64,000 nt of DNA from Phoronis australis (Eukaryota; Animalia; Phoronida): positions 520,888 to 584,887 of the forward strand of contig NMRA01000031.1 of the NCBI GenBank assembly GCA_002633005.1, read 5' to 3'. A program made the position numbers and the translations under genes. Position 1 is the stretch's first letter; every line of letters starts with the position of its first letter. The notes beneath the pieces are model-generated. The model was not told where the DNA came from. It searched no databases and saw only the letters and a list, made by a program, of their open reading frames with translations. Of the stretch, positions 5,993 through 43,080 are shown in pieces.

Positions 5993-6555
5993 TATAAGTA
6001 GGCCGAAGTGGAGGTTAATCAATGCGGCCGGCGCAGACGATCGCTTCCTCATAATTCAAGCAAGAAACAAGATGGCTGACGCGGAAAAACTAGAAAAAGA
6101 AGTAAGCAAAGGATGTTCAAGCCTACACGGCTATAGCCGAACGTGGCTGACTGGACTATTGATGAAAATGAAAGCCATGGTGGTTATTGTCCTAGTGAGC
6201 NAAAACTTCCGAATCGATGAATGCGGTATATCTGTGAGAGTTAAATCGAATCCTATTCAGATCATAACTTTGAAGTGGAATAATTCGGTGAGTACAACAG
6301 CAAGTCGGTTTTATGCTTAGGCGGACGAACATTGGGCTCCCCAGTATATAAGTAGGCCGAAGTGGAGGTTAATCAATGCGGCCGGCGCAGACGATCGCTT
6401 CCTCATAATTCAAGCAAGAAACAAGATGGCTGACGCGGAAAAACTAGAAAAAGAAGTAAGCAAAGGTCGGTTCAAGCCTACACGGCTATAGCCGAACGTG
6501 GCTGACTGGACTATTGGTGAAAATGAAAGCCATGGTGGTTATTGTCCTAGTGAGC
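5993..6555 (+). repeat. ~210-bp near-identical direct duplication of the promoter and first exon (MADAEKLEKE|gtaagc) of the TPR-NTase gene
   Basis: 5993-6200 is repeated at ~6346-6555 with few differences. Copy 1 ends at a single N (6201), which suggests an assembly junction. Confidence 0.85.
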
Positions 6556-9500
6556 TGCGGCAAAGCCTGTTGCCGCCCGCGAGTATCGGAAATGACCGCA
6601 TCCCGCATTGCCTGGGCTTCGGAAGGAGCGGTGAATGGACGCAGCTGATTGGGAGCCCAGCGCTGCATTGTTTAATCTCAGTTGTGTATCATTCTAGTGT
6701 ACTTCATTCACCAATTAAAGTTGCGGAAGCGGACACGCTAGGACAGAACTTCCGGTTGTGATTGATAGACATTTACCCAATTGCCCAATGTTTCCCCCGG
6801 CTGCGTGTAAAAACCTGGGTCGCCCGTCACGCTCTTTTTTGCCCAAATTGACCTCCACAAACCTCCTGAAGGGAAAATGCGCAATACAGTGCTGTAGAGG
6901 TAAGTAGGCGCCCAAAGCCCACCGTATCACCTCAAGCACTGAACGTTACTTACGGTGCGTAGACGCTACGTTCAAGTGCCAAAAGGTGGTCGGCTGCGCC
7001 TACGTGCGCCTACGCCCCACTACAGCACTGGCGCAATGAGGTTACGTGGCTACTGTCGATGTTTGTGGATCAGTAATGGACATTAATTAGTTAATCAGCT
7101 CTAAAGACAGATTCAAATCAGTGGGAAGTAGGCGCAGACAACCACCTTTTGGTATTTACACTTTACGTACCGTTATACGTTCAGTGCTCAACTTAGGTAA
7201 TACGATGGGCTTTGGGCGCCAACGTACCTCATATTTTATCACTACAGCACTGGTTCAATACTATTTTCATTATACCTACATGTCTAAAGAGTAGTCTGAA
7301 GCCCTGTCATGGCGTGCCCGCATCCTAACAGTGATTGAAATACATTAGAATGATACAAAACTCTTCATACACCAAGATCACACAATGACTCTTTATTGCA
7401 GCGCCGGGCTCCAAATCCGCTTCCACCAATCTCTACCACGCCCCTCTCGAAATCCAGGGGAAGAACACTTCCAGTATATGATGAAATCGGTCATGAATGC
7501 CCAAACAAGAAACAGTCCCAAAGATATATCCAAGAACATGGTGATCAATAATTACGAAGCACACTGCGATGAGCATTGTGTGAAGTTTCAAAACCAAGCC
7601 TGTCACGTGATATAATACTGGTATAAATTACATCAAATGGCACTAAATTACACAGTGATTTTCCTTGTTATAAAAAACGACATAATACTGTGGAAAGAGT
7701 GACCAAGGTCACTGAAACCAACAGTAAAAAATTATTATTTTGCTCAAGGTTGAAGCTTGTCTCAAATTCTAGAAGTAGGCAATATTGTCCGTCCCAAATT
7801 CAAGAATCATCCGAAAAACCGTAAAATTTCCCATTCTGTAAATCAGTTAAAAGTTAACAGAAAAATCGTACTTGCCCCAAATTCCAGAATCAAGAGTTTC
7901 CGTGTCCCAAATTCAACAGACTGTCCCAAATTCTACAGGGAGAATTTTTACCGTAATATTATAAACTTGTATCGTATAACGTATCATTGGTGGTAGAATA
8001 TAGGGATGTTTAACGAACACAATGTTGTTAATTCACTTTCCAAGACACTACTAGTTCTCTAAATCAAGGACCATTATATTGGACAATTGATCTTTTTATT
8101 CGCCCATGTGGTCACATATTGTCGTCTTGTCTGAGTGTCTACTCGATATCTCAAGAAACCCTGGTTGGATATTTATGAAATTTGGTACAACGGCGAAGGG
8201 CGTCACAAAAACGGTCCGTGCAGTCTGGTCATGGCGGCGTTGCTTTCTCAGTATTTGTGGGAAGAGTTTTTCCAGATGTTATCTAAAGAATGAATTTCAA
8301 TGAAACTTGACCCAGAGATATGTGATGTCAATGCGTTGGCACCATTTTGCTTTTCGGGCGACGGGTTCCTTCACTGCAGCGCGGCGACTGGTTCCACCAC
8401 TGCAGCGCATCTTGAAGACCATTTTGGGAAAGAGTGTTTCCGTATGATATCTAGTAAACGGGTTGATGCCTTTCAATGAAACTTAAACACCAAAATATTT
8501 GATGTCAATGCCGACGCCGGTGTCATTCGATTTTCGGGTGCATTGGAGGACTAAAGCAGTGCTTCCTAGTGACCATCTTGAAGAAGAATGTTACCGGATA
8601 GAGAACCCATTGATGGATTTCAATGAAACTTGCTAATGTTTTGCATCTTGGTAAAATTGATTAAGTAACATTAATTGCACCTCACCTTAACCCATAGGAA
8701 CATGTCGTTTGTGTTTGCGATGCACCTTGGGTACGTGTCAACATCCCCAGCTGGTAGATTGTTGATTTTAGCGTGGTAAACAAAACAAAAGTTGATAGTT
8801 TACTGTAGCTAGTGGCAAGTAAAGACAAGGAGCTGACATTGAGGCCATTGTGACATATTCAATGGCAAGTAGAGACAAGGAGCTGACATTGTGGCCATTG
8901 TGACAGTTAGGATACATTACTGTCACTCAACGTACAAAATATATTCAAAAGAACAATTACTATATACTAAACTCCTTTTGAAATACATAAGCCGAATTGC
9001 CAATATTGTCCTACTTTTGGAAGTGGATATTGTCCCGCTCGCTGTTGGAAGCTCTGTATCACGTCCTTCCACAGCATTGGAATGTCCTGCTTTTGGACTT
9101 GCAAGTCGAAACTTCACACACCAACACACTGTTAGTGCGCGGATGCATGTTTTCATGCTTTTGGGCATGGTACACCCTATTTCCCTTTTCCATTTTCGAG
9201 ATGACTGGACACTTTACCAACTTGCATTTATATCGTCTCATGCCTACACAGTTCTTAAAGTGATGTCCCAACGTTTTTAGGCTCAAATTGAAAAGGAATT
9301 GGGCAATGCTGCTTACATGGAAAAGAAATTTGAGGAAGCTCACCAATGTTACGACAGAGCTATTCAGCTAGATCCGACCAACATCACATTCTACACTAAT
9401 AAAGCAGGTATGGAGAATAAGCGCTTTTACTCACCTGATCAGCACTGTTTGCGTTTCTTTATTGTTGAAGTTAAAAACTGCATTTCACCCTTTTACTCTT

Positions 9501-12500
9501 ATAAGATGTGTCTCAAAATTTTCAGGGCTCGACAAATTAGCTGCACTATGGCCGCTTTGAGACATGAAATTTGGAAATGGCAGGCTCAGATTGTGTCCTA
9601 CTATCCTTAATCACATTAACTGAATGCAACATTTGAAGACGCATGTGTTAAAGTGCCAGTAAAGACAGCGGAGTCTCAGATGTGAACTCATCTTTACAAT
9701 GAATCAAGTTTGGCCAAATTTGAAGTGCATTAAAACACTATGTTGCGTCCCAAACTGGATTAGTTAATAATCATTTAAACTAATTAACAAGCACATTTTA
9801 CCCTGCTCTGGACTACAAAATTGTTCTACCAGAAGTCACTCTTACTAAAACGGCATTGTTTGAAGGGTTTTCTAATTCTAATTTCACAGAACCTTTTCAG
9901 TTATTTCTTTTTATATTGAATCTAGCTTGACTTATGGCATCTGCGATTTTTACCCAACCCACCGTTGCACTTAAAATTTTGTTACCAGTGCCTGTTGAAT
10001 ATTTCTGGCTACGACAGTGATTGCGACATGACACATCGGGTTATTGCGACGTCACGAAATGTAGCAGTCCAACACCAGTGCTCTCGATAACCTTCCTCGT
10101 TTTGTTTTCAGCTGTCTACTTCGAGCAGTGCAATTTTGTGGAATGTATAAAGATATGCGAACAAGCTGTCTCAGTGGGCCAGAACAACCAAGCAGATTGC
10201 AAGTTGATAGCCAAGTGAGAATTGTTCTGAAGAGTCCTGACAAGCGTTGTTGCAGACCTTTCTGCAGATGGGTTTTAAATTCTTGTGAGATAAGACCTTG
10301 TGAAATGGCAAGCTTTGGGGACGAGAGTACAATCGTGACATGAATTTTGTCTAGATCAGACATTTAAACTTACTGATGCCAACTGTACACGTAACTGAAA
10401 TTGCTTGTACTTCAAAACTTACGAGAATGACAACTGCACAGTAGAATTGTTAAAGTAATCTAGAACTTGGTACTTAGAACTGGAGGCAAACGACATACAC
10501 GACTGTTTTTAAAATTGAAAAGTAAATAGTAGCCGTCTTTGAATTTTTAAAATCGATGCATAATAACATAAATTAGTGAAAAGTGTTTCTTCAGTGTGGC
10601 ACCTAAGGCAGGAGCATTAATTTGCGAATTAATTAGGACGGGTTAGTCACTGCCCTGCACAGGCTCGGTTAGGAGTTGGCATAACAAAACCCAAAATGTT
10701 AGCGTAGGATTTGTCTCATATTCAGGAACACCGTCAATTTCACAAGAGAAACTTGTGCAGTTTCTGTTAGTTTATTGAATGGCACATGTTCCGATGTATT
10801 CGCAGGGCCTTTGCGCGGATGGGGAAAGCATACAAGCGAAAAAGTGACTTGAAAAATGCATTGTTGAATTTCAACAAATCATTAGCAGAACACAAGGCCC
10901 CGGATGTAGAGAAATTAGTGAAAGAGGTAAAAAAATGAAGTGGAGTTAAACAAGCTTCCTGATTCAGTAATGTCTGGATAAGAGTGGGCCGTTACAGGCC
11001 GGTGTCAGATGACCACTGGTGTAGGAGTGGGTCACTGGCCGGTGTCTGAGGACCACTGGTGTGTGCTGGTAGAAGTGTACTGCAAGCTCTTAAATTTCAC
11101 ATTTTAATGCCAATTGACTAAAGTTTACTATTTTAATTTGTTTGTTTGTCATGTCTATTGGCAATTTACTTCATAATTGTAGACCTGGGTTGAGTTGCAT
11201 AAAGCTTCAAAAGTTATCCCCTGGATAAGTTTAATTGTTGCATGACCTCATGTGCATTGTTCAACAATAATAACGTGACGCGTGATAATGCGACGTCATT
11301 GTTGCTATACCGCGTATAACTTTTATGCAACTGGGCCCTGATGGTTGGAAACTGTACAGAGAACATGAGAGAGTGTCTGTGAAGCTATCCAATTAGAAGA
11401 AATACTGTTAAGGAAAGCCAATCACATATGTCGGGCACTGGTTACAGTCTGGCTAAAAAGAACGACATTGCAACTTTAGTGCAACTACATGAAGTGTTGC
11501 TTTCCATGTTACATACGCGAAAGAGGAGTTGGTTTTGATTATAGTTGAAATGTTGTAAGGTTTTCTGTATGCTCCAGAGATGAAGTCAAACATGTTCCCT
11601 TTTTGTCTCTGCATATCAAATAATTGTTTGTTTGTGATAGATTTCAGAAGAGGAGCTGCGTGGGCTGGATGACAGAGAAACTGAGCTAGCGTGTTCACTT
11701 AAAGAACTGATAAAGTCGGAAGGAGGGTCAGCGTCAGCTGGGACCATCTTTGTCAAAATGGGCAATATTCATAAAGAGCGGGCTTTGTTGACAAAATGTG
11801 TCCAGCATTGTGTTACTGCTTCCGCGCTGTATAACGCTGCTTTAATAAGAACAAAGGATGAAGAGTTAGTTAAGGGTCTTGAGGCGACAGTAAGAGAAAA
11901 TGAACAAGCATTTTGTGACCTATTGTCATTGCCTGGGAATAAAGTTCCCGTTGATTACAAGGCAGATGTAAAAAATATGTTGGACAGTATCAGAAAAAGA
12001 GTTTCACCAACGGCCGAAAAATTATTGGAGGATTATAACAAGGCACTCCAATTAGATCCAACTGAAACTGAGCGTTTGTCGTTGGAAAAAGAGTTTGTAG
12101 AGGAAACTAGGAAAGTCTTTAACGACATGTGTTCTGATATAATTTCTCTTGATGGGCTTCTCATGTCAAAAGCGGAGGAAATATTAGGGTCACCTCCACA
12201 GGAGTACGCAGCTATAGCCATGGGGTCTTTAGCAAGAGGAGAGGCAACGCCGTTTTCGGATCTTGAGTGGGCAATTCTGGTTCAAGATGAAAGTAAAGAC
12301 CTTGAGTACTTCCGAAACTTGGTACGACTTGTGCATTTATTTGTCTTAAATTTTGGAGAGACATATCTTAGAACCATGAGTATCAAATCACTGAATGATT
12401 ACTATACTCCTGGTGGGAATTGGTTCTTGGACGACGTAGTGGCACGTGGGTTTGAATTCGACAGTGCCGCCCCCTATGCGTGCAAGACCCCGTTAGGACG

Positions 12501-14532
12501 AGCTGACAGACCAGATAGACCAGGTATAGAGTTGATCAGAACACCTGAAAAGATGGCCGAGATCTGTGAGTATGATACAGCATTAAAGGAAGGCTACATA
12601 TTTGATCGCATTCTTTCCACTACTGTGAAGCTTCATGGTAGCCAAGGTGCCGACCGTCTTGTGGAAGAATTTAAAGAAAAGAGGAAAAAGTATAAAGCTG
12701 ATGGCCGAGTACTTGAAAAGGTGCATCGGGAAGTCATGGAAATACTCCAGGAATTTAGACCACAAAGAATGCTTGTTGACAACATGGTTAATGACGTTAA
12801 GCAAGATATGTTCCGATTGCCTACTGTGATCATGAGCTTGTTAAAGACACTGTTCGGAGTGGATAGTGAATTCACATGGGACGTTTTGAGCGAAATGGAA
12901 GATAAGAAAATGTTGACAGAAGACGGTTGCCATAATTTACTGGTGGTTGTGTCCATTGTTGCTCTCCTGAGGCTGGTGATGTATTGTCAGAAGTCTTGTC
13001 AAGGGGAGTTGCTATCTTGGGCACCACAGACCCTTGAGAGTAGTGAAGCAGACTCCAAGAAAGTAACCCGACTTTACAGATACAAACCTATACTCATTCG
13101 GTATGCTTACACCATTTTTCCATTTGCTGATTGTGTTGATGGTATAGATTTACAGACCATCTGCAAATCAAAGAAACTGGACGGCGTTTTCTACGATCAG
13201 AATTACTATCATGTCGGTTTGTTAGAGCAGAAGTTCTTTGCATTTGATAAAGCGCGACATAACTATATCTGTCATATTGAGACCAGAGCGAATAATTCGT
13301 CTTTGGAAGAAATGAATTCCAGAGATTTCCTGGATGTCAAATATGGGCCCGAGGGCAAGAATATTTCTTGCAACGTTAACGATGATTCCGTACTGTCTTG
13401 TTTGCGACTGATTGGAGGTACGTATCACGCCGAGGGTCATTTTCGAGAGGCGTCTGAGTTCTACACATATGCACTGAATGCAATTATCAGGCGGTATAAA
13501 CACACCACCTTATCGAAGTCGTGTCTTGAATCAATTAAAGAGGCTGGTGATAAAAGCTCATTCTGTGGACAAGTCCTTCATGATATGTGCGAAGTATATT
13601 ATATATTGGGTCATTATGACTTAGCTCTAGATTTTGCGAACTACTCGTTGAAAATTTTCCAAAGTTTGAAAATCATCCGGGCCACCATATATTGTAGAAA
13701 GAGCATTGGCATGATTTGTTGTGCAATGGTAAAGTACGATGAAGCTTTGGGAAATTACAACATTGCATTGGATGGTCTAAAGAATGACTGCGAGAGCTTC
13801 AGTCTGCAAATATTAAAATATCATATTATTCATCGCAAGGGACTTGTGTATGAAAGACGTGGAAATCATGACTTAGCACTAGAAAATCATAAAGAAGCGT
13901 TGAAAGGCTTGCAAGAGATCTGTGGATACGGGGACCATTTCCAAATTGCATCTGGTTTACGAGACGTTGGAAGTGCTTACGCAAATAAGGCGGAATATGA
14001 ACTGGGGTTGAAATACTTTAAGGACTCGCTAAGTATGTGTCGAACTCTAACTAAAGATGAAGACCATATTGCTACAATGGGACTGTTGCGTAACATTGGA
14101 AACTTGTACATTAAGATGGAGAGAACGGTCAAATTAGGATTGGAATATTGTGAGAAATCACTTGAAATGTGCAAACGAATTTTTGATAACGCCGACCACC
14201 CAGAAATCGCAGCATGTTTGCTAAAGCTAGGCGTTGCGTTTGGCGTCAACAATGAACACCATTTGGCTTTGCAAAGCTTTATAGACTCATTGCGCATTTG
14301 GAGAAAATTTCATGGTTATGATGACCATCCTGAGATCGCTTCGTGTTTAACTAACCTGGCATTAGCTTACTACAACACACAGAATTACCAGTCTGCCTTG
14401 TTTCATTTCGAAGAAGCAAAAGATATGACAATTAGGATTTTCGGGGAATCGCAACCTAGTAAGTTAGCTAGTTTGTTGAAATTTATTCGAATGGTGCGTA
14501 ATGCAATGGGCAATGATGAAGAAACCAGTTGA
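6426..14532 (+). CDS. chimeric protein (~1090 aa): STIP1/HOP-like TPR2A domain + DUF294/GlnD-like nucleotidyltransferase + helical substrate-binding domain + C-terminal TPR array
   Basis: Exons: 6426-6455 (or its duplicate 6072-6101), 9281-9407, 10112-10214, 10806-10926, 11641-14532. All introns are GT-AG with compatible phases (0,1,2,0). The spliced N-terminus reads MADAEKLEKE|AQIEKELGNAAYMEKKFEEAHQCYDRAIQLDPTNITFYTNKA|AVYFEQCNFVECIKICEQAVSVGQNNQADCKLIAK|AFARMGKAYKRKSDLKNALLNFNKSLAEHKAPDVEKLVKE|ISEEELRG..., continuing in frame into the 924-aa ORF. Confidence 0.8.
6887..7030. mobile_element. hAT-type MITE with 11-bp TIRs and 8-bp TSD
   Basis: TIRs are CAGTGCTGTAG...CTACAGCACTG, flanked by gcgcaata / gcgcaatg (7/8 TSD match). 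A diverged inverted copy follows at ~7119-7251. Confidence 0.8.
8095..8640. repeat. dispersed element with internal ~150-175-bp diverged tandem units (Helentron-associated/HINE-like)
   Basis: The core 'tttcaatgaaactt' recurs at ~8296, 8472 and 8618, with 'tgatgtcaatgc' and 'catcttgaaga' in register. Similar inverse-orientation 'aaatttca' units lie at 53.4-54.6 kb. The family assignment is inference. Confidence 0.5.
8813..8904 (+). repeat. short direct duplication (~43 bp x2)
   Basis: tggcaagta(a/g)agacaaggagctgacattg(a/t)ggccattgtgaca occurs twice. Confidence 0.85.
11185..11340. mobile_element. small MITE in the intron before the NTase exon
   Basis: Imperfect TIRs ggg..agttgcataaa / tttatgcaactgggccc. 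Confidence 0.55.
11641..14532 (+). CDS. single 2.9-kb terminal exon: pol-beta-superfamily nucleotidyltransferase (DUF294/PII-uridylyltransferase-like) + TPR repeats
   Basis: The frame is open from the acceptor tag|11641 through the ATG at 11758 to TGA at 14532. It has the NTase signature 'AMGSLARGEATPFSDLEWAILV' (GS at 12223) and 'GFEFD...CKTPLGR'. C-terminal ~44-aa TPRs include 'DHPEIAACLLKLGVAF' and 'DHPEIASCLTNLALAY'. Confidence 0.92.
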   Translation: MSEEELRGLDDRETELACSLKELIKSEGGSASAGTIFVKMGNIHKERALLTKCVQHCVTASALYNAALIRTKDEELVKGLEATVRENEQAFCDLLSLPGNKVPVDYKADVKNMLDSIRKRVSPTAEKLLEDYNKALQLDPTETERLSLEKEFVEETRKVFNDMCSDIISLDGLLMSKAEEILGSPPQEYAAIAMGSLARGEATPFSDLEWAILVQDESKDLEYFRNLVRLVHLFVLNFGETYLRTMSIKSLNDYYTPGGNWFLDDVVARGFEFDSAAPYACKTPLGRADRPDRPGIELIRTPEKMAEICEYDTALKEGYIFDRILSTTVKLHGSQGADRLVEEFKEKRKKYKADGRVLEKVHREVMEILQEFRPQRMLVDNMVNDVKQDMFRLPTVIMSLLKTLFGVDSEFTWDVLSEMEDKKMLTEDGCHNLLVVVSIVALLRLVMYCQKSCQGELLSWAPQTLESSEADSKKVTRLYRYKPILIRYAYTIFPFADCVDGIDLQTICKSKKLDGVFYDQNYYHVGLLEQKFFAFDKARHNYICHIETRANNSSLEEMNSRDFLDVKYGPEGKNISCNVNDDSVLSCLRLIGGTYHAEGHFREASEFYTYALNAIIRRYKHTTLSKSCLESIKEAGDKSSFCGQVLHDMCEVYYILGHYDLALDFANYSLKIFQSLKIIRATIYCRKSIGMICCAMVKYDEALGNYNIALDGLKNDCESFSLQILKYHIIHRKGLVYERRGNHDLALENHKEALKGLQEICGYGDHFQIASGLRDVGSAYANKAEYELGLKYFKDSLSMCRTLTKDEDHIATMGLLRNIGNLYIKMERTVKLGLEYCEKSLEMCKRIFDNADHPEIAACLLKLGVAFGVNNEHHLALQSFIDSLRIWRKFHGYDDHPEIASCLTNLALAYYNTQNYQSALFHFEEAKDMTIRIFGESQPSKLASLLKFIRMVRNAMGNDEETS

Positions 14533-15992
14533 TCAGTTCAACTGCTGTTGAAATAACAATTCGACAGGATATATGGACTATTCCTCAAAGAAATTCCTTC
14601 AGCTAACATTCAAGAGAATGCAGTTATGTCACATTTAAATTCGTTGAAATCATATATTGTAAATTCCAGACCAGTCAAGTTTTACACAAAACAGAGTTTT
14701 CATTGTAACCTATGGCAACCGTTACAATTTGGAAGGATCCTATGAATTTTAATTATGTTTGCACGTGGTATAGCCTCTAGCAGGAAGTCTTTTATTTGAG
14801 TGTTTTGTGTTTTTTCTGTTGTTCCTGTTACTGTTTTGGTATGTCCAGGTGACTGCTAATGTTTTTCTCCCACAAAGTACGTAAGATTTACTAACGTTTA
14901 CTATCAGTGCGTTCTAGACCATTATTTGTTTATACTTATTCAGTGTTTTTAAGTGCTCTTCCGGCGATTAGTAATATTTTAGCTGTTAGTCAGCTTTCCT
15001 AGATTAAATTGACAGTTCTTAAAGGGTCACTACAACCATTTTCTTAAAGGTCTATTCATTGAATTTTAATTGAGTTTTCCAGTTCATAACTGTTTTCGTA
15101 GTGTTTTATCTCTTTTTCAGCTTCTACGGTGTGTTTTTTTAATGCTCTTGGGAAAATAAATTCCTGAACCAGGAGTTCTTGTGTTTTTGTCCGTAGAAGC
15201 CAGCTAGGGGGAAACGTATATATTTTGATTTAACTTGGGCCTACATGATAATAAGTACACGCTTCCATAGTTTCGAATTGAGCATATGTGCAGCGCTTGT
15301 ACACTCACGTGGTGGAGAACGAGGTAGGGTCAACAAGCGGATTTGTTGATGGTTTTTGACCGAAGCACCTTGCTACGGGACGCTGTCATTGTCAGATTGC
15401 CTCGTTTTCGATGCAGTCGAAGGCAGTGTTCCCTTTTGTCAGTTGAATAGGGACCGAGCAATAGAATGCAAGATTTCTCTTAAAAAAGTTTGGAGATATA
15501 GAATTAAGCAGGTCTCGATAATGAATTTATGACAACAGTACAACACCCAAGGAGTAGTTGGAGCAGAAACCTTAGACTCAAAAATGCCTGTGGACTGTAC
15601 ACCCAGCGATTTTGACCGAAAGTCTCAAAAATTGCTATACATCGGAGTTCATATCTCGTACAACACAAAATGGCTGCTAGACCTGACGATCGTGTATTGA
15701 ACGACGTAAAAGGGCTATAGACTCGACGATCGTGTTCAGAATATACAAGGAGATCCATGAATGCGAAGGAGGCATCAGATCCGACGATTGTGTCGCAAAT
15801 GTTCACAAACTAAAGGCGGCGGATTGTGTACCCAGGGTGTGAGGGAGAGCAATGTAATGGGGATTGAGAAGACGTTGTCATGCTTGCGTGGCGTGCCGCT
15901 GGGATGAGGATTTTCCATTTCTGAGATACTTTTTGGGTAATTTTTCATCATTTTGTTATATAATTTAGGATGGCAGTTCGAATTAAGTTATC

Positions 15993-23400: not shown

Positions 23401-26400
23401 GATGGGGTCACCTGAGCATCAAGCACATCAGGCAGATTATGCTAGACCTGGGTGAGTTGGGCGACCACCACGGACACGGTTGACTGAATACTGGGTAGTC
23501 TACAGTGCTGTGTGAATATGGAGGCCAGTTTTGAGGAGTAGCTGCATGTTGACATACCGGCGACTTGTTTGGATAACTTCTACAACTTGAAATATATTTA
23601 ATTAGTAGCATTTGAAATTCACCACATTGATTGTTTGCTTAACTTAAATTGTAAGTGCAAGATAACTGTAGCAAATATTTAAGTCCCGTCAGCACGCCAT
23701 CTGTTGGCCACATCACATCATGATGGCTAATTCTGTTAACAAGTTACTGGTAATAAATATTAGGGTGGCAAAATGCTAATTAGAGCATGGCTCAGCCACT
23801 TTACTAACGTTCCTGTTAATTACCCTTCATTCTCTGCCATCAGGGGAGACTACTCTGGTGAAGAATTTGGCTTCTCTGCCCAGTCATCATAATGGTTAAT
23901 TCCATGTCATTTTGTGCAAATATTTTTGGCTTATACTGTATCCATTTCACCTTGTAAATATGAAATATTCCATCTGTGAGCATATATAGCAGTAACGGAT
24001 TAATCATTTTGCGTACTAAATTTTATAAGAAATAATTTTTCATGTTCTGAACGTATCTCCAATTCCACCTCGTGATAACCACGGAGTCCTCTTGTTACTG
24101 TGTGACTTAGAGTTTCAAGTCCGAAGCTGTTTTTCGATTTGACTGCAACTCCAACCTTCTATTAACCATGCGCACGGTGGGTGACTGGTGAATGTGATTT
24201 GCACTGCATATTATGTATATAACTTATTTCAAATGTTGACATTGCAGACCGGTCTTATCCAACTCACAGGCTATTCATGGGTAACACGCAGGAAGCCAAA
24301 GAAGGAAGGGCGTCGTTATTCCGCTTGCTGTCTGTCTACGCTCGCTACAACACTGCTGTAGGATATTGCCAAGGTTAATATTCAAAATGACTATCACATC
24401 ACGCCTATTGTGTAAACCGTTCCACATTTAGTTACAAAAATAGAGATCTAGTTGATTTGAAATATGACGCAGGCATTTTTAAACAATCTTCGGTGGACAT
24501 TCACTATTGACTGGGAGACATGCAGCAATTCATACTGCTATAATTCAAATGATTCACATTTCCAGACTCTGCTGTCACAAAGGTATGCGTTATCTATCCT
24601 ACTATGTCTCTAATTCTTCAACTGAGCCTGTTAAGCAGTCCAGTTCAAATTCCGCTCCACTTCCAGGTATGGGTTTCATCGCTGGCATGCTGTTGATGCA
24701 CATGTCTGAAGTAGAGTCTTTCTGGTGTATGGTGGCGCTGTTTGAGCGACACAAATACCTTCTCGGCTATTTTGACAGCTCACTGGTTCGGTAAGTCTCG
24801 TCGCATATGTGCAGTGAAACTTTCTAGGCAATGTGATTTAGTTTAAGATAGTTTGAACAAGAGGGCAGCACTGTCTATATAATAGTAAACCAACGTGCCT
24901 CATTTAATAAACATTTCAATAATTTGTATTATTTCGATACAGTCATTTTGGTGACTAGTAACAAGTTACACAATTACTTGATAAATTGCCAGTTTCTCAA
25001 ATAGGAAGGTTGTTTACTTTTTATTTGACCCCAGAACACTATCTGTTGAAACTGTACTAACTGCTGGATGTACATTCACCAAAAAGAATTTTATATGCGC
25101 TAACTGCAAAGCGATACTGAAGCTAGTTTACAGTGAAACAACACGTTTAGATGAGATAAAAGGTCATATATATTATGACAAACTAAACTACTACAGATAT
25201 CGGTAATTACAAAAGTTACATAATATGTTGAACTGTAAAGGTGGGTGAGAATTATCTTGTCAGTTGCAGAGATTCTTGAACATAACAGGCTCGAAGAGAA
25301 ATCATAAAAGTACTATTTTTGTAGCCTCTCATGTAAAAGCGGAAATTTTAAAAACAATTTGTAGCAGCGTTTGAAGATCAGTACATAAAACAAGGTAAGT
25401 GAAAGTTGAGCCATTTATGAGATATGTTGTTTCAAAGTTAGCCAAATGTGGACATTTTTCTAGAGTCCTACGTAACCTGAATGCCACAACCTTTGTGCTA
25501 TGGTTAGCTGTTGGGGGCAAAGTGCTTGCGAAGACAGTTGAGACCATTGTTACAGAAGAACACTTTGCCCTCAACAACCATAGTTTCATTGCTGTGTCCC
25601 TGAAACAACACTGTAACATGAGTGTACATGAAGGAAATCCCCACCTTCATTGAAGAGCAATTTTACCGTTTCATTTTTTTTTTTTTGGTCAATTTCAGAA
25701 TCCAGACACATGCGCAGGTGTTCCATAAGATCCTTCAACAGAGGCTGCCCAGACTCCACAATCATTTTGTAGGTTGTTTTGTTTAAAAATGGAAGAAAAC
25801 AAATTGTATTGCTCTGTCAATGCTTAGTGTATGCATCCCGTGCATTCGGACATTATTCTTCTTACAGCTTATTCCTACCTACCACTTCAGTGGAAACTGC
25901 CAAGTTCACTGATGTTAGTTTTTATGGAAAACAAATATTGACTTATCGCCATATGTTTTCTCACCTGTTTTTGTGAGATGCTACTGTCAAGTCTGCTAAC
26001 GTGAATACAGTTCTGATCTTACATCAACTTTTTTCATGTTGGTGCGTTAGTTCATAGTCAGTCCCTACTATATGCAAAATTAAAACGATCCATGACAATT
26101 TTTGCCCCAGTTTGGCTGAGACTGTGTTGCACTGTTGGATATCTGCTTTGAGCCTGTATCCTATTTATTACAAGAGTTTATTGTGCAATTTTATCAAAGT
26201 TGTGAAAATTATTTCCATTGTGTTGGTTTATGTAATGAGGTCTAAACTTTTGAATTTCTACAATGCTGTTTGTACTATAGATAAATATGGAGAGAGATCT
26301 GATGCTGTACTAAACAGAGCCATTAAGGAATGTGACTCAGGAGGCACCATATTGTTGTGTGGATCTCACTGTAAATAAACCAGCAAGGCCGTGGGCGAAT

Positions 26401-29400: not shown

Positions 29401-32400
29401 TCACGTCGTGGGAAAGTCAAGCGAGCAATCAAATTTAACTCTCCTGGCACAGTGCAATACACGAAAGTGAACTCTCCTGGCTATGCATTCAGTCTCCAAA
29501 GTGTGTAAGTGATTGTATAATATATTCATTATCTTATATCGGACAGTCTCCGCGTTTAGCTAAATGTCTACAACATATAGACTTGTACTAAAATGTATGT
29601 TATGGATTACCTGAAGAATTTGATTTTGTCTTCATAAATCTTCTTTTAATTGGGTTGAGTGACCACATCCTTTTTAGTAAAATTAAGTTTAAAAAGAAAA
29701 GGGCATTCATACTAACACAATACTTTCAATAACATATGCAAAGTTTAGAGGAGAATGCCTCCAGATTTAATTAGTCTTTTTTACCGTCTTAATCGGTCTA
29801 CATCCACATCACCTCTTATACGGTCGACCTCACCTTGCTGAGAGGTGTTGCGTTAACCTGTGTAGAAGGTGAGAAACAACGCAGCGACGTCAGTGGTTTG
29901 TCTGCAGAGTTAATGCTGCTATATTGCAGTGCATCGTTCCCGCTTGTCCGAAATATGAAGCTGCGAAGAAAGTGGGTATATCGTTTTTTCGACTTCCTCG
30001 AGAGCCCGAAATGCTTAGGAAGTGGCTCGCGGTAGTTAAGAATGAAAGGTATGCTGTTCATAGCAAGTATGAGGCCGTGAAACATCTCCGTGTCTGTGGC
30101 CGGCATTTTGTCCACATTGATTTCTCTGACAAATTCCGGCTTACCAAAGAACTATCCATACATTCCGTTGTCTGTGCATGGTCACGGCGCTTCTCTAGTG
30201 TTTCTTGATCAGTGTACTCCGGTTTGAACTGATAGCCTGTGAAACCTAACGATCCGACTCATGAAGTCTTCGTCGTATGAGCTCTTGACTAAGTCAGGAT
30301 TGGCGCCGGGCGAGTTGCCATGTATTCTGCATTCTGTTTCAAAATGAATTATTATCATCCTAACCATTGCTTACATAAAACTGTAACAAAGTCTGTCTCA
30401 TTAGATACAATTGCCTTTGCAGTATTCGTGAGTGCAAACATTGAGAAGCCAGCAATGAATAAATCACTTCGTTAATGGCTTTTGATGCCGGCAATAAGGT
30501 AATTGACCGGGCACCCGAGGCTGTGTGAGCACTTGCTAATTCGGTGTTTGCTGACAGAAAGCTGTTGTGAAACAATTACTCGATTTTATAAGCTATGGTC
30601 ACATGTTAGGGGAATCTTTATTTAGAAATACAAATACATTATTCAAATCATTGTTAATGTACAACCTTTGCCCTGGTGGTCTGTGGAAGGGGAACCCGAC
30701 TTTGCGGCCCCCGACATGTAGATTTTCAGTTTCGTGGCTAATTCACGTAAATAATTACATGCACATTATTTCTTTGGCTCATTATTATAGTCTTTTCGTG
30801 ACTGGAGGTTTAGTTTCTAACTCAAGCTGGTTTATGTTCATGCCAGTCCCAGCGAAATAAAACAACATGTTTTTATAAGAATTCTGTGTATTTTTATGGG
30901 GGTTTTACATCGAAGTTTGGTTATTTATTGGTGCTAAACGATGAATTCAAGCGATAAGGTGAAACTAGTAATCCGTGTTGTGAACTGCTGAACAGACTGC
31001 GTTTGAAACCAATGACATCATTGGATAATTTCAACACCTCCGTCTGCCGTCAGGTAACACAACCGAACGTGCCGTTATCGTGTATAACTTCTCGATCTAA
31101 ATTGATACAAAGTAGGTAGTTTTTTGGGTGGCATTCTCCTTTAACATCTTCTGGTGCCAGTGTTCAAGATGATTTCTCAAAAACAATGATATGATTTTTT
31201 CAATTGTCATTTTGTTTTGTTTTATGGAAATTTTGTTTTGTTAGAAAAATCTAATTTAAAGTCCAGTTTTGATAACCAATTATGTCAAAGTGGAATGTTT
31301 TAAACGACAAATCCTATCAGCGTTTCGGACAACAGTTCATAAAGCATAGTATGATAAAGTTTCCTTTGAATCTAATCAGCCGTTCATTGACTTGAAGTTA
31401 CAAATAGCCAAATTTGGATATTTGTCAAGGTTTACACAAAAACTTAACTAAACATCACTTCTTGACCTGTGCTGGTGTATTGTTAGGAGTCTCACAAACA
31501 GTCCTGTACTGCCCTGATTTGTCGCTGACCGACAATTGGAATGAAACACCTAACTTCAGCCCATGTACTCCATGCTGTCCAAAGTGACCTCTATTGGCCC
31601 TTTGCAAAATAAAAGTGATCAATAAGGTGGCATGTTGGGGGGTCATTGTTCCCATGTCAACTTTGGTCATTACTCGACAAATTGTATTCTGATGGTCAAT
31701 TACAGGGCAAAGTGCTCATGTGCGACTGAAACAATAAAAGCAAACACTAATAGTCAAAAGAGTGATCAGTACAGCCTAGATTTATAACTGTTGAGAAAAC
31801 ACTGATGTCGTTATTAGGGCAAACTGGTATTGAAAGTTGAGAATTTATCTATTGATTAAAAACATGCTTCTCGGAGTTTAACTCCGTGCACACTGACTAC
31901 AACTCTAAACCAGAGTTGAGGTTGATGTCGAGCATCGCATTACGCAGAGTCTATTTAGTTATTGACTACATTGCCATAGAGGTAGACAGTGCGACAACAG
32001 TGCAACAACAGTGCGACAACAGTGTGACAACAGTGCAACGTCACTGGAGTTGTTACAGTCTTAGTCTTGCCACTTCTCTATAGGATATCACTTTGGATCA
32101 AAAGTGTAAAATCACCAGATAATCTTTGTTTTAGATTATAAACACTGTGAGTATGCTAATCTGGATGGTTCACAAATTGTGCGGCATGAGCTTCAGGTTG
32201 TAAAAAAATAACTTTTGTTGAATTTTTTGCTGTATTTGTGCAAATGTGAATATGCCACTGCCACAGTGTTTGTCTCCAATTTAGAGTACTTTAGTTGCTA
32301 GAGGCGTGATATAATCACTTTCCGTTCCTGTCACCTCTCTTCTTTCTTCTTTCCAGTCAAGGTAGCCCTAAATTTGCTACACCGCTGCGCCGAAGTCCTA

Positions 32401-38299: not shown

Positions 38300-41106
38300 A
38301 TTAAATTATATGGTTTAAGAAGTTCAGCAACAGAGTACTCAATCGATTGATGTGCGACGGTGGTTGAAAGCCGCGGTCGGTCGACCGGTGAGCGGCGTGC
38401 CCGATCGACTAGGGCTGAGTCGGCAGGCCGGGATCTCGGATTACAATTCATTGACAAATAAGGAAGCGAGTCATTACCGGAAGTCGCCCGGTTCAGTAGG
38501 CTAACACTCAAGCGGTGTTCAACAAGCGCTCTTGCCCAATACCTACTCGAAAGAATACCTAGGTCTAGGTTAGTATCAATTGCGTTATTCACTTAAAAAA
38601 GTTGTTGAGGAACGTGATAAAATGATCTTGTTTTCGGCAGCCTGACGTTCAGCGCAGGCCACGGAGTTGGTCCGATACGCTTGCCGGACTAGACAGTACT
38701 CCACAGTAGGCCTACTCTGTACTAGTGACTAGTGGCCTACCACATTGCCCACAGGCACCGGTCGCCGAAGCCTTTCGGCGAATTATGCCTCACACTGATT
38801 AAACCGGCATCAAAGTCTCGTTTCTATAAAAACCTTTTGTGCACAGAGGGGCACCTTATCAAGCCATTGATTCAGCTTGAACAGATACTCTCCCAAACTT
38901 GTTTTCGAACTGAATTCGTCCAGTTGCCCAAATTGGCTACTGGCCATTTTTACACTGCGCGCGCCAGGACATATGACTTCATAGGCCTATCTGACTGGCT
39001 GCAGAAGACCAATCCCAAAATGCTTGGCCACATGTTAAGAATCTTCCAATTATCCCCATGTTTTCTTACGATCAGACAAAGTCACATTTTTTGGCCAGGT
39101 CATGTAATTTATAAGAATAAAGTATGGCTGTGATTGATAGCAATTTGCATGTAAGTGTCAGGACAAATTTCACTCTTGAGCAGCTTGTATAGTGAAAACA
39201 ATGACTTCAGAGCGACGACTTCAACCACTCATGTAAATGAATGAGCATGTAATCGGGACCAAGAAACATAAAACTTATGCAGACTCGAAGAGTTGCGCAA
39301 TGTCGAGGTTGCTTGTACAAGTAAAAAATATATTTTGACGCTAGTCTACATAATGTATAGTCGATCTACACAAAGCTAGCTGGCACTGCTTGAATATAGT
39401 GGTTTGCAATTTAAAGGGCCAGTTTCTTGCACTGAACAATAAACCAGTTATTCAGTGATTAGATTTTTCTCAAAATCAGGGATCGCTTTGTATACAACTT
39501 GTGTTGACAGTGCGTTGTTGTCTGTAGCAGAAATGTTCCTCTTCCAGCTGCTCAACTGGAGATCGCTAAAGAACAGAAGAGCCAATCAAACTTGTATTAT
39601 TCTATATTAATTTTCTGTTCATGTTGGTGGTAAGGTTGCAGTGAAGCTCCTTTTGTGCCATTCTTCTGGAGTGTAAAAATCAAATTTCCAGTAGCAGGAT
39701 CTAACCTAGAATCACAGTCGATTAAACCTGTCATGCAAGCCTTTTGTGTTGGTACACAATATTGTGGTTTACCTGGTCAGAGCTTACAGTACAGTCACAT
39801 TTAAAGGAATCAACAGGTGAAAGTTAAGTCTAATTTCTCTGAAAGTCAACAGTTTTTCTCCAGATTTTACAGTTTTTTGGTGAAAGTATTTCATGCAAAA
39901 CACATCTGCTTCACGACATGTGTTGAAAGTCGTTTGCAAATAGTATTTTTAAATATCCGCCTCCGGCTCACTGTTAACAACATAATCACTGGATTACCTG
40001 AGCTTATCAGATGAAAACAGACAATAAGAGAGCTAGACTATGAAAACACTGGTTTGTCACTGTCACACTAATAATGCCATGGCTGTATCCCCACTGACCC
40101 ACCACTCAGTGGGGATACTCATTCCACAGCGCGTGCGTAACGGATGACAAATCCTACTTAGACCAGCTGAGACGATAGCATTGCCTACCCTTGGTACAAA
40201 ACTGTATGAATATGGAACCCCTACATTTTAGCAATCTGAATAATCTGGAAATGATGACAGCCAGTTATTTCCACTAATTATCAGATGTAAATGGGTCTCA
40301 GTCCGTTCCGGTTGATTTAGATGGCTAAAATTTAAGATTGCCCATAAATACACAGATCGGGGTTCGTGGTTGTAAAAATCAGTAAAACAAAATCTCACAA
40401 AAACTTCATGCCATTAAAAACTGCACTTAGCTGTGACTGAATTTTGAGTTGACTGACTCTGAATGATGTTGAATCATTGGGACTTGAATAGTGGTCACCA
40501 ACCTCTACAGACCATGTTTGCAACATCTTTGTCACCCTCGATGACATTCAGTGATAATTGCTGATTGGCTGTGTTAGCTTTGCACGTGATGGCCCAATGT
40601 TACTATTAGGATTTTCTTACAAAATTTGAAGAAATTTTAAAAATCGAGTGCCTATTTTTCTTTGAGTAATTTTAGAAGTGTATGCACAGTGTTAGTATGG
40701 CATGGAAGTTCTGGGAGGTTTATAGTCAACTCCTCAGGATAATGAATGAGTCTTTAATAGGTTAGGTTGAGCACAAACCTAGGCTCTTATGACTTCATTG
40801 GAAAGTTTTACAGTCTCTCAAACACTTGCCTTAAATGCTGAATCTTGGAAATCGGGCATCTTCCACTTTCAAAAAGTCAACCCACATTTAGACCAATAAT
40901 GCCCCAAAAATTAATATCTGATCCGTGCGTTAATGTTTTGCTTTTGCTTTGTTTTGACAATAAATGCCTTTTTCTGGCTTTTGACATTTTTCTCAAATAA
41001 TGAGTGTGCTTGACCTTTTCGAATTTTGTTTTGTTATGTGAGCCGCATTTCAACTTTTTTAACGTACCTTAATTTGTTGTTTCATTGTTTCAGAAACTCT
41101 TGTGTA

Positions 41107-43080
41107 ATGGCTGTTGAGGAAAACAGGGACTCTTTTGAAACTTTCTTTGCTGCAGTCAACGAAGTCTGTTGTAGTGACAGTTTCGTCAATGTTTTTCGGG
41201 ATCTCAACAGTGACGAAGAGCGTGTTGGATATCTCTACTCTCTGGAGGTAGTTAAAGAGTACAACGTTGAAGCAGATCTTCACTGGACCAGAAAATCTCA
41301 AGAAGAGTCTGTTAAGCTTCGTAATGAAGGCAATACATTTTTTCAAAAGAAAAAGAATGTCGCTGCGTTGAGTAGATACAACAAAAGTGTTGCATGTGCA
41401 CCACTAGATGGAGATAAAAGAGAACTGGGGCTTGCGTTAGCCAATCGGTCAGCTGTGTTTTTCCATTTGAAGAAATACAAAGAGTGTGTGGCAGACATTG
41501 AATGTGCGTTTGAGTGTGGCTATCCCAACGAATTAGCTTACAAGCTCCATGATCGACAAGGAAAGTGTTTACTTAGGCTAGGACAGGTAGATAATGCCAA
41601 GGTGAGCTTCGAAAAGGCAACGACACTGTTGGGAAGTTCTAAATTGGATGACAAAAAGAGGGCATCATGGTTAAGTGACTTGGGATGCCAAATGAAAAAC
41701 TGCCAAATTACCGATAACAAAAAGGTTAACTGTGAGATAAAATCTGTTAAAGCGCACAAACTTCCTTCATTAAAATGTCAGAACCCTAAGTTTCCTTCTT
41801 TGGCTGCTGATGTTGGCGTGAATCAGAGTGAAGAGAGAGGTCGCTTCCCCTATGCCGAACGTGATATCAAAATTGGAGAGATTGTTGCTATTGATAAGCC
41901 TTATGCGTCAGTTGCAGTTCCTGCTGAGATATTTTCTCATTGTCACGAGTGTTACACATTTGTGCATGCAGCAGTGCCTTGTCAGCATTGTTCATTTGTT
42001 GTTTACTGTAGCGAGCAGTGTCGCCAGTCATCCTGGGACAGACATCATTCAGTGGAGTGCCCTCTATTGCCAGCTGTATACAGCAGTGATGTTGGGCTTG
42101 GGCGCCTGGCATTGAGAACAGCAATTGTGACTGGGATGAGTGGAATGAAACAAGTTCACAGCAACTCAACTACTGACACTGATGGCATAGTGGGCTGCGA
42201 TAAGGATGGTGTGTTTGGTACTAGCTATGACTCCATCTATCACTTAGTTAATCACTCTGATAAGCGTGCAGTTGGTGATCTAGTTCGCATGACAGCAGTC
42301 ACGGTGTACCTCACAAAATTGCTGTGCAAAGTGAATTTTCTGGATGAATCTGAATCCGATTTTATCCTGGTCGCGAGTCATATCTTACGTAATATTCAGA
42401 TGATGCCGTGTAATGCTCACGAGGTGTCTGAATTAGAACTGGATAAGAGATCTGTAGCCACATCCAAAAAGATTGAAATTGGTTCAGCTATCTACGCTAC
42501 GTGCAGCTTATTCAACCATTCATGTGACCCTAATGTTGTGCGTCACTCTTATAAGGACGTCTGTGTTGTACGCGCCATTCGTCAGATTCACAAAGGTGAG
42601 GAGCTTGTTGACAACTATGGCTACCTGTCTGCTATGACCCCTCTACAGAGGCGTCTGTTCAGACTCAATAAGCAGTATTTCTTCACATGTTCTTGTATAG
42701 CATGTGCCAATGACTGGCCTCAGTATTTAGAGATGGAGGATAGTCTACCAGTATTCAAGTGTGTCAAGTGTTCAGGAGCGGTCTGTATCCGTAGCGACAG
42801 TTACGACAACTTGTACTTATGTGTTGACTGCAACCTTCCACAGGACATCAGCGGTAAATTCGACGTCTGGAACCAGTCACACATAAAGTATTCTCGCGTC
42901 ATGGAAGCTCTTAAGTCATCATCGAGTGAGTTGGATGTGAAACCGTGGATCAAAATCTTGACTAGCCATTTGAGGTTGTTGGATGATTTGGCATGTCGGC
43001 CATGTAAGGAGTACAATGAATGTCAGGAAGCCTTAAAACAGTGTTGGAGCATTAAAGCCAACTGTCATGTGGTGAATTAA
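41107..43080 (+). CDS. SMYD4: SMYD4-like SET and MYND domain lysine methyltransferase with N-terminal TPRs, single coding exon (~657 aa)
   Basis: TPR 'LRNEGNTFF...LALANRSAVFF', S-sequence 'ERGR', MYND 'CHEC...CQHC...YCSEQC...HHSVEC', SET 'SLFNHSCDPN...GEELVDNY', post-SET 'YFFTCSCIAC'. An acceptor cag at 41093 precedes the likely ATG at 41107. Confidence 0.92.
   Translation: MAVEENRDSFETFFAAVNEVCCSDSFVNVFRDLNSDEERVGYLYSLEVVKEYNVEADLHWTRKSQEESVKLRNEGNTFFQKKKNVAALSRYNKSVACAPLDGDKRELGLALANRSAVFFHLKKYKECVADIECAFECGYPNELAYKLHDRQGKCLLRLGQVDNAKVSFEKATTLLGSSKLDDKKRASWLSDLGCQMKNCQITDNKKVNCEIKSVKAHKLPSLKCQNPKFPSLAADVGVNQSEERGRFPYAERDIKIGEIVAIDKPYASVAVPAEIFSHCHECYTFVHAAVPCQHCSFVVYCSEQCRQSSWDRHHSVECPLLPAVYSSDVGLGRLALRTAIVTGMSGMKQVHSNSTTDTDGIVGCDKDGVFGTSYDSIYHLVNHSDKRAVGDLVRMTAVTVYLTKLLCKVNFLDESESDFILVASHILRNIQMMPCNAHEVSELELDKRSVATSKKIEIGSAIYATCSLFNHSCDPNVVRHSYKDVCVVRAIRQIHKGEELVDNYGYLSAMTPLQRRLFRLNKQYFFTCSCIACANDWPQYLEMEDSLPVFKCVKCSGAVCIRSDSYDNLYLCVDCNLPQDISGKFDVWNQSHIKYSRVMEALKSSSSELDVKPWIKILTSHLRLLDDLACRPCKEYNECQEALKQCWSIKANCHVVN

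Follow-up and report, generated by a model that had tools for sequence, protein, structure and literature searches.

A HOP-type TPR2A domain spliced onto a predicted DrrA/GlnE-like nucleotidyltransferase in Phoronis australis

Do a chaperone-docking domain and a protein-modifying enzyme belong to one animal gene, and if so, what might the docking be for? The locus that raises this question lies in a 64,000-nucleotide (nt) stretch of the phoronid Phoronis australis (assembly GCA_002633005.1, contig NMRA01000031.1, positions 520,888 to 584,887, forward strand; the window hereafter). An earlier note, made from the letters alone, had proposed that four small exons here, three of them resembling the TPR2A domain of STIP1/HOP, splice in frame onto a large open reading frame (ORF) with a nucleotidyltransferase (NTase) motif and tetratricopeptide repeats (TPRs), giving a protein of ~1090 residues. 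We find that the gene is transcribed and spliced, and that it fuses a HOP-type TPR2A domain to an NTase and a TPR array, with three of its four joints present in RNA.

Structure and transcripts of the fusion gene

The five exons lie where the note had placed them, all four introns are GT-AG, and translation of the splice join gives an open frame of 1,090 codons. The features of the gene, in window coordinates, are:

6072..6101, + strand: second, identical copy of exon 1, inside a 208-nt duplicate
6345..6351, + strand: putative TATA-like box, a consensus match only, ~75 nt 5' of the ATG
6426..6455, + strand: coding part of exon 1, 30 nt, 10 codons, phase-0 donor GTAAGC (GT-AG join, indirect read support)
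9281..9407, + strand: exon 2, 127 nt, first TPR of HOP TPR2A (STIP1/HOP matches, RNA reads), with clamp residues K15 (9293-9295), N19 (9305-9307) and N50 (9398-9400), and also Y22 and Y34
10112..10214, + strand: exon 3, 103 nt, second TPR of TPR2A (HOP match, reads), with F56, E57, and L84 at the position of human Q298
10806..10926, + strand: exon 4, 121 nt, third TPR of TPR2A, ending in phase 0 (HOP match, reads), with K87 (codon split by the intron), R91 (10816-10818), and K94 at the position of human N308
11641..14532, + strand: exon 5, 2,892 nt, intronless, with helical lead-in, NTase, helical C-terminal subdomain, TPR array and stop
11767..13170, + strand: predicted DrrA/GlnE-like nucleotidyltransferase module; model residues 14-481 align to DrrA 14-349
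12223..12267, + strand: putative catalytic motif G322-S323-L324...D334-x-E336, with the G-to-D spacing of DrrA G98/D110/D112
13405..14427, + strand: C-terminal TPR array of TPR_12/TPR_10 (kinesin-light-chain-like) type, bounds approximate

RNA reads were taken from three stranded runs (X1-X3) with the same species label and from a different individual; ~18-19% of each run was read, and a splice joint was listed only if carried by at least three reads. Joints 9407/10112 and 10214/10806 were each found in 12 reads, and 10926/11641, which connects the HOP exons to the enzyme exon, in nine exact reads whose shorter arm reaches up to 74 letters. Twelve more reads, aligned as 10917/11639 with seven letters between, represent the same splice point on a variant copy in which the last nine bases of exon 4 (three codons) differ at three places. 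Alternative donor/acceptor pairs near exons 4 and 5 also leave the frame open, and reads were therefore required to fix the joints. The absence of a transcript joining 10926 to 11641 had been named as the outcome that would turn the HOP exons into a separate pseudogene fragment; the reads do join both, and rule that fragment out.

All reads over 11540-14993 have a single orientation, which fits a plus-strand transcript, and their depth over the large exon is ~6-17x in the 5' half versus 1-8x in the 3' half (~9-17x over 11854-13109; 1-8x over 13110-14679). Exons 2-3 are covered at 2-21x with the introns almost empty, a level similar to that of the large exon, which argues against reads from the parent STIP1 gene. 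Bacterial contamination is ruled out by the spliced reads and by the GC content at third codon positions, 0.41 versus 0.43 in a neighbouring SMYD-like ORF. A fourth run, available as contigs, had no joint listed, and no single read in these data covers the transcript from end to end. Neither the 924-aa nor the 963-aa translation has an exact entry in the protein collection searched.

For the fourth joint, 6455/9281, the support is indirect. Upstream of 9281, seven reads of run X1 carry on into a stretch whose 30-nt consensus (agreement 0.75) opens with the ATG nonamer of exon 1 and is identical to that exon at 20 of 30 positions by hand count, so that the 10-codon first exon is supported for the gene family, and for this copy only indirectly. 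Exon 5 itself needs an upstream start, because its first Met is at residue 40 and 103 of 180 relatives align upstream of that Met. Exon 1 is present in each of two near-identical 208-nt copies (5993-6200 and 6347-6555), with the TATA-like box within, that lie on either side of an N at 6201; the DNA upstream of the two copies differs, 6202-6348 behaves as a dispersed repeat in the reads, and the duplication is probably due to two haplotypes or an assembly overlap. No perfect heat-shock element was found near the promoter, the window having one match (29263) versus 1.03 expected. In introns 1 and 4, the stretches 6895-7031 and 11187-11338 are dispersed repeats with reads on both strands and loose ends.

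Over 9281-10214 and 11641-13100, the reads of X1-X3 group by likeness into several classes, ranging from 99+ to under 90%. The reads of one class each differ at 10 or more places, and in three reads the exon 3 that follows 9407 is more diverged again. The expressed copies thus include several paralogues or strongly divergent alleles, and the frames are open in all read classes listed.

The docking and catalytic domains

Exons 2-4 follow human HOP gaplessly, in order and in register: exon 2 corresponds to 228-266, exon 3 to 268-300 and exon 4 to 302-337. Residues 11-120 are identical to STIP1 of the anemone Actinia (P0035) at 66 of 110 positions, ungapped, with exon 2 alone at 74%, and 126 residues compared with the separate STIP1 domains gave 58% for TPR2A and 32% and 27% for the other two (TPR1, TPR2B), far lower, as the note's assignment to TPR2A would have it. 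All five carboxylate-clamp residues that it had listed are indeed kept: K15, N19, N50, K87 and R91, equivalent to human K229, N233, N264, K301 and R305. Among six other peptide contacts, four are kept (Y236, Y248, F270, E271), bringing the contact and pocket residues retained to nine of the 11 checked; Q298 is replaced by L, as also in the solved STI-1 domain 4gcn, and N308 by K (contact residues as listed in the available parts of PMC9826382 and PMC7524759). Clamp and four pocket residues are shared with human TPR2A (solved structures of the domain are PDB 1elr and 7kw7 and, for Caenorhabditis elegans STI-1, 4gcn), and Q298L, N308K and the fusion to an enzyme set the domain apart from it. In STIP1/HOP, TPR2A stands within a TPR1-DP1-TPR2A-TPR2B-DP2 array, whereas in the window only STIP1 235-354 is matched strongly and the transcript runs on into the NTase exon. 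Judged by its residues, the product of exons 2-4 is a HOP TPR2A domain.

The exon 2-4 block begins and ends in phase 0, and is in that sense, from its sequence, a module ready for shuffling. Human STIP1 exons 6-8, at 127, 103 and 121 nt, equal exons 2-4 in size, which would indicate exon copying at the DNA level rather than retroposition.

Profile search of the large exon scored DUF294 (PF03445) at 32 bits, over its cut-off of 21, with SidM_N (20.5 bits, cut-off 27) and likewise NTP_transf_2 below theirs, and TPR_12/TPR_10 were strong in the last 350 residues, bearing out the description of an intact NTase motif followed by TPRs. A structure model of the first 511 residues of this exon, built from a 31-sequence alignment, had a predicted local distance difference test (pLDDT) score of 86.4 and a predicted template-modelling (pTM) score of 0.88. 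Among 48,161 solved chains its best match was DrrA (Z 26.9, 324 residues aligned, root-mean-square deviation 3.7), followed by two GlnE domains (Z 22.0 and 21.9), then by two more DrrA fragments and unrelated helical chains at Z of 9.8 or less. Foldseek at E≤0.001 returned only four matches, all GlnE and DrrA chains, its weak rows (E 0.06-0.7) including aminoglycoside NTases and HalB. Of the GlnD/GlnE types named earlier, GlnE is the nearer in predicted fold, with DrrA closer still, and GlnD the more distant: the GlnD equivalog TIGR01693 scored 16.8 bits versus a cut-off of 519.4. The large exon is predicted by the model to comprise a polymerase-beta NTase with a helical C-terminal subdomain, its fold nearest DrrA/SidM and GlnE.

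The N-terminal AMPylase of DrrA/SidM (PDB 6yx5) has the motif G98...D110-x-D112 (PMC7815794, in the part available), sharing G-S-L...D-x-D/E at equal spacing with the P. australis enzyme, and the G, S, D and E of the motif are kept in 175 of 181 relatives of the window's enzyme. Unlike DrrA/SidM, to which it is 14% identical, the predicted enzyme has SidM_N under the cut-off, no guanine nucleotide exchange factor or P4M (PI4P-binding) domain was found in it, and its gene is spliced and carries TPRs. It resembles GlnE and GlnD-like DUF294 proteins (PDB 3k7d, 1v4a) in fold and in the DUF294 score, and differs from them in its single catalytic domain, in the lack of HD or ACT domains in the profile scan and in falling far below the GlnD equivalog cut-offs. 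DrrA has been grouped with GlnD and GlnE among the NTase-HEPN proteins (PMC3710099, in the part available).

Relatives of the enzyme and the search for the same fusion

The enzyme region has at least 1,074 cluster representatives at E≤1e-10, with octocorals and a tunicate among the named relatives and Atlas clusters that are mostly eukaryotic, one being chlamydial. Single-sequence patterns found nothing in prokaryote genomes; an alignment query gave 18 loci there (Parachlamydiaceae, Rhabdochlamydiaceae, Holosporaceae, Midichloriaceae, Gammaproteobacteria and unclassified bins), and metagenome contigs gave 309 matches, from which 79 loci were retained. Membership is indicated by DUF294 above its cut-off, then the TPR_12/TPR_10 array, and by homology across the whole core. 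Core, motif and C-terminal TPR array are those of Neochlamydia NEX2 and of invertebrate entries named 'Protein-PII uridylyltransferase N-terminal domain-containing protein'; NEX2 is F-box(+OTU)+DUF294+TPR in the accessible text of PMC4209131. The protein differs from the examined relatives of this NEX2-like family in its HOP TPR2A, and domain-length matches are ~24-39% identical. No close relative of the P. australis gene was found in these searches.

Before the core, 58 of 181 relatives have at least 120 residues and 123 have fewer. Scanning 16 with long N-termini revealed CARD (2), fn3, IRF, EGF, eIF5A, ankyrin and RickCE-like domains, and these add-ons suggest an immune-type family. In the predicted gene models P0207, P0209, P0201, P0191 and P0278, IRF, CARD, CARD+fn3, eIF5A or EGF precede the same NTase-TPR core, and P0156-P0161 and P0036, like loci L057, L061 and L074, have two or three NTase stretches per protein, or tandem genes. 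A quick tree of 90 of 127 cores (37 were removed as over 85% identical) displays lineage-specific radiations; its backbone is unresolved and this protein sits on a long branch, and we therefore do not argue for any donor or direction of transfer. From these comparisons the NTase-TPR core is a large family in invertebrates and host-associated bacteria that swaps N-terminal modules, so that the architecture, earlier thought undescribed as a whole, appears new only in its HOP module.

The same architecture, which the note had suggested looking for in related genomes, did not turn up: HOP TPR2A was found in none of 181 proteins (out of at least 1,074) above 33 bits, a true STIP1 scoring 140, and HOP-like exons were near the NTase at none of 97 loci, with at least 2.5 kb of upstream sequence at 48 of the 79 metagenome loci. 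The same exon test recovers all three HOP exons in the window; the negative is nonetheless weak, because many records were called without introns and upstream exons were often missed. An exon 2 search among longer proteins scored only four candidates and says little on fused forms, and a search of 2,562-5,000-residue proteins returned mostly generic TPR proteins and has no bearing on the fusion. So far the fusion is represented by one lineage.

No description of a HOP-NTase fusion, nor a functional study of the animal family, was found in the open-licence literature, and the NTase-TPR family is not mentioned in the available part of PMC3482391. In the portion available, a review from 2021 gives Fic and SelO as the only metazoan AMPylases (PMC8097203). 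The gene combines parts of known kinds; its animal enzyme family seems not to have been studied, nor the HOP fusion described. RNA reads make the gene a clear example of exon shuffling, one that could give rise to a new co-chaperone enzyme with a TPR clamp, and an N-terminal module with a known ligand makes it an unusually testable member of its family.

Possible roles of the docking domain, and other features of the window

Three STIP1 exons may have been copied at the DNA level, as a phase 0-0 module, and set before an intronless NTase-TPR exon that already existed. The product would be a cytosolic enzyme whose TPR2A clamps Hsp90 (or Hsp70) by its EEVD tail. Its NTase, putatively using ATP to modify a protein, would transfer AMP onto a side-chain hydroxyl, either of the chaperone or of one of its co-chaperones or bound clients, the C-terminal TPR array perhaps acting as substrate selector or brake. 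Such chaperone-docked AMPylation, with the C-terminal TPRs selecting or gating, is the reading we favour from sequence and model, at slightly short of an even chance. In its support stand the junction reads, the TPR2A identity with its kept clamp, the fold matches and conserved motif, and a family that repeatedly acquires targeting modules at the N-terminus. Other enzymes with a TPR clamp are PP5 and CHIP, and an Hsp90/Hsp70-tethered AMPylase would parallel their design and that of FICD/HYPE. The TPR motifs of FICD direct AMPylation of the endoplasmic reticulum (ER) Hsp70 BiP (PMC8065156, in the part available), and TPR-guided AMPylation of a chaperone therefore exists; FICD differs in its Fic fold, its place in the ER lumen and its TPRs, which bind the BiP linker and not an EEVD tail. 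The more demanding claim, that a docked DrrA/GlnE-fold AMPylase constitutes a new Hsp90 co-chaperone, a metazoan AMPylase class beyond Fic and SelO and a clue to the family's first substrate, we regard as tentative, a possibility we would not bet on; if it is true, the borrowed docking domain hints at a first substrate for more than a thousand family enzymes.

Several observations weigh against docked AMPylation. On the enzyme side, identity to DrrA and GlnE is just 11-14%, so that donor and acceptor cannot be read from the sequence; the third catalytic acid is at candidate level only (conserved E367, D391 and D401, for DrrA D150 and GS-AT D753); and the substrate of DrrA is a Rab GTPase, not a chaperone. 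On the docking side, N308, replaced here by K, is a listed peptide contact, F56 (human F270) is L in one read class, TPR2B and the DP domains are absent from the fusion, and secondary Hsp90 contacts of HOP lie partly outside TPR2A (PMC7524759, in the part available). The clamp residues of exons 2-3 are invariant among the read variants, without reaching significance (P 0.56), and joint 6455/9281 was not directly seen at the three-read threshold. In favour of docked AMPylation, by contrast, read-versus-window differences were mostly silent in NTase core residues 320-460 (10 silent and 4 replacing, crude pN/pS 0.11), less so in exons 2-3 (10 silent and 19 replacing, crude pN/pS 0.44), ratios that come from the differences listed only, unphased and with alleles or paralogues mixed.

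This last contrast would also suit a TPR2A that is a trigger rather than a tether, an integrated bait or sensor in an expanded invertebrate defence family, for which the integrated decoys of plant NLRs provide a model. The module would then monitor Hsp90/EEVD status or be bound by a HOP-targeting pathogen factor, and the enzyme would AMPylate the family's usual target (perhaps a small GTPase, as DrrA does), causing cell death or a trafficking block. The CARD, IRF, eIF5A and EGF domains at the same position in relatives, the lineage-specific radiations, the several divergent expressed read classes and the drop in depth over the TPR array, as if the array diverged faster, all point this way; yet some of the N-terminal add-ons may be mis-joined gene models, the depth loss may have other causes, and a pN/pS of 0.44 is not positive selection, and we consider this account unlikely, if a serious competitor. 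A good deal less probable is that TPR2A serves the enzyme itself, recruiting Hsp90/Hsp70 to fold, stabilise or de-repress it, with the AMPylation target set by the C-terminal TPR array and unrelated to chaperones. Most relatives have the same catalytic core and TPR array without the HOP module (the 123 of 181 with short N-termini), and target choice therefore need not depend on the N-terminus. Hsp90 binding relieves autoinhibition of PP5, a model for such a switch. DrrA is itself allosterically activated away from its active centre (PMC7815794, in the part available). Against such a role, Hsp90 clients normally fold without any clamp domain.

Two further accounts would remove either the protein substrate or the docking, and both seem improbable to us. 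The polymerase-beta superfamily includes enzymes that make a diffusible nucleotide signal or modify nucleic acids or small molecules rather than proteins, and the aminoglycoside NTases and HalB in the weak Foldseek rows recall them, but the only strong, near full-length structural matches are to protein-modifying enzymes. Marginally less credible still is that the HOP exons are passengers in a young fusion, giving the large exon a promoter and start codon while TPR2A no longer binds EEVD. The lack of a Met before residue 40 of exon 5, N308K and the relaxed constraint in exons 2-3 would suit such passengers; however, 40% of positions have diverged from anemone STIP1 with nine of 11 contact and pocket residues kept and the frames open, and exon 1 alone, in the same phase, could give the start.

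Elsewhere in the window, an intronless 688-codon ORF with TPR, MYND finger and SET domains lies at 41014-43080 (+) and is presumably SMYD4-like, and a frame at 29873-30208 (+) has a THAP domain (E 5e-12), either transposon-derived or an exon of a THAP gene. At 24483-24794 (+), a frame with part of a Rab-GAP TBC domain (E 5e-7) is probably one exon of a neighbouring gene, and its proximity to a DrrA-like enzyme is most likely due to chance.

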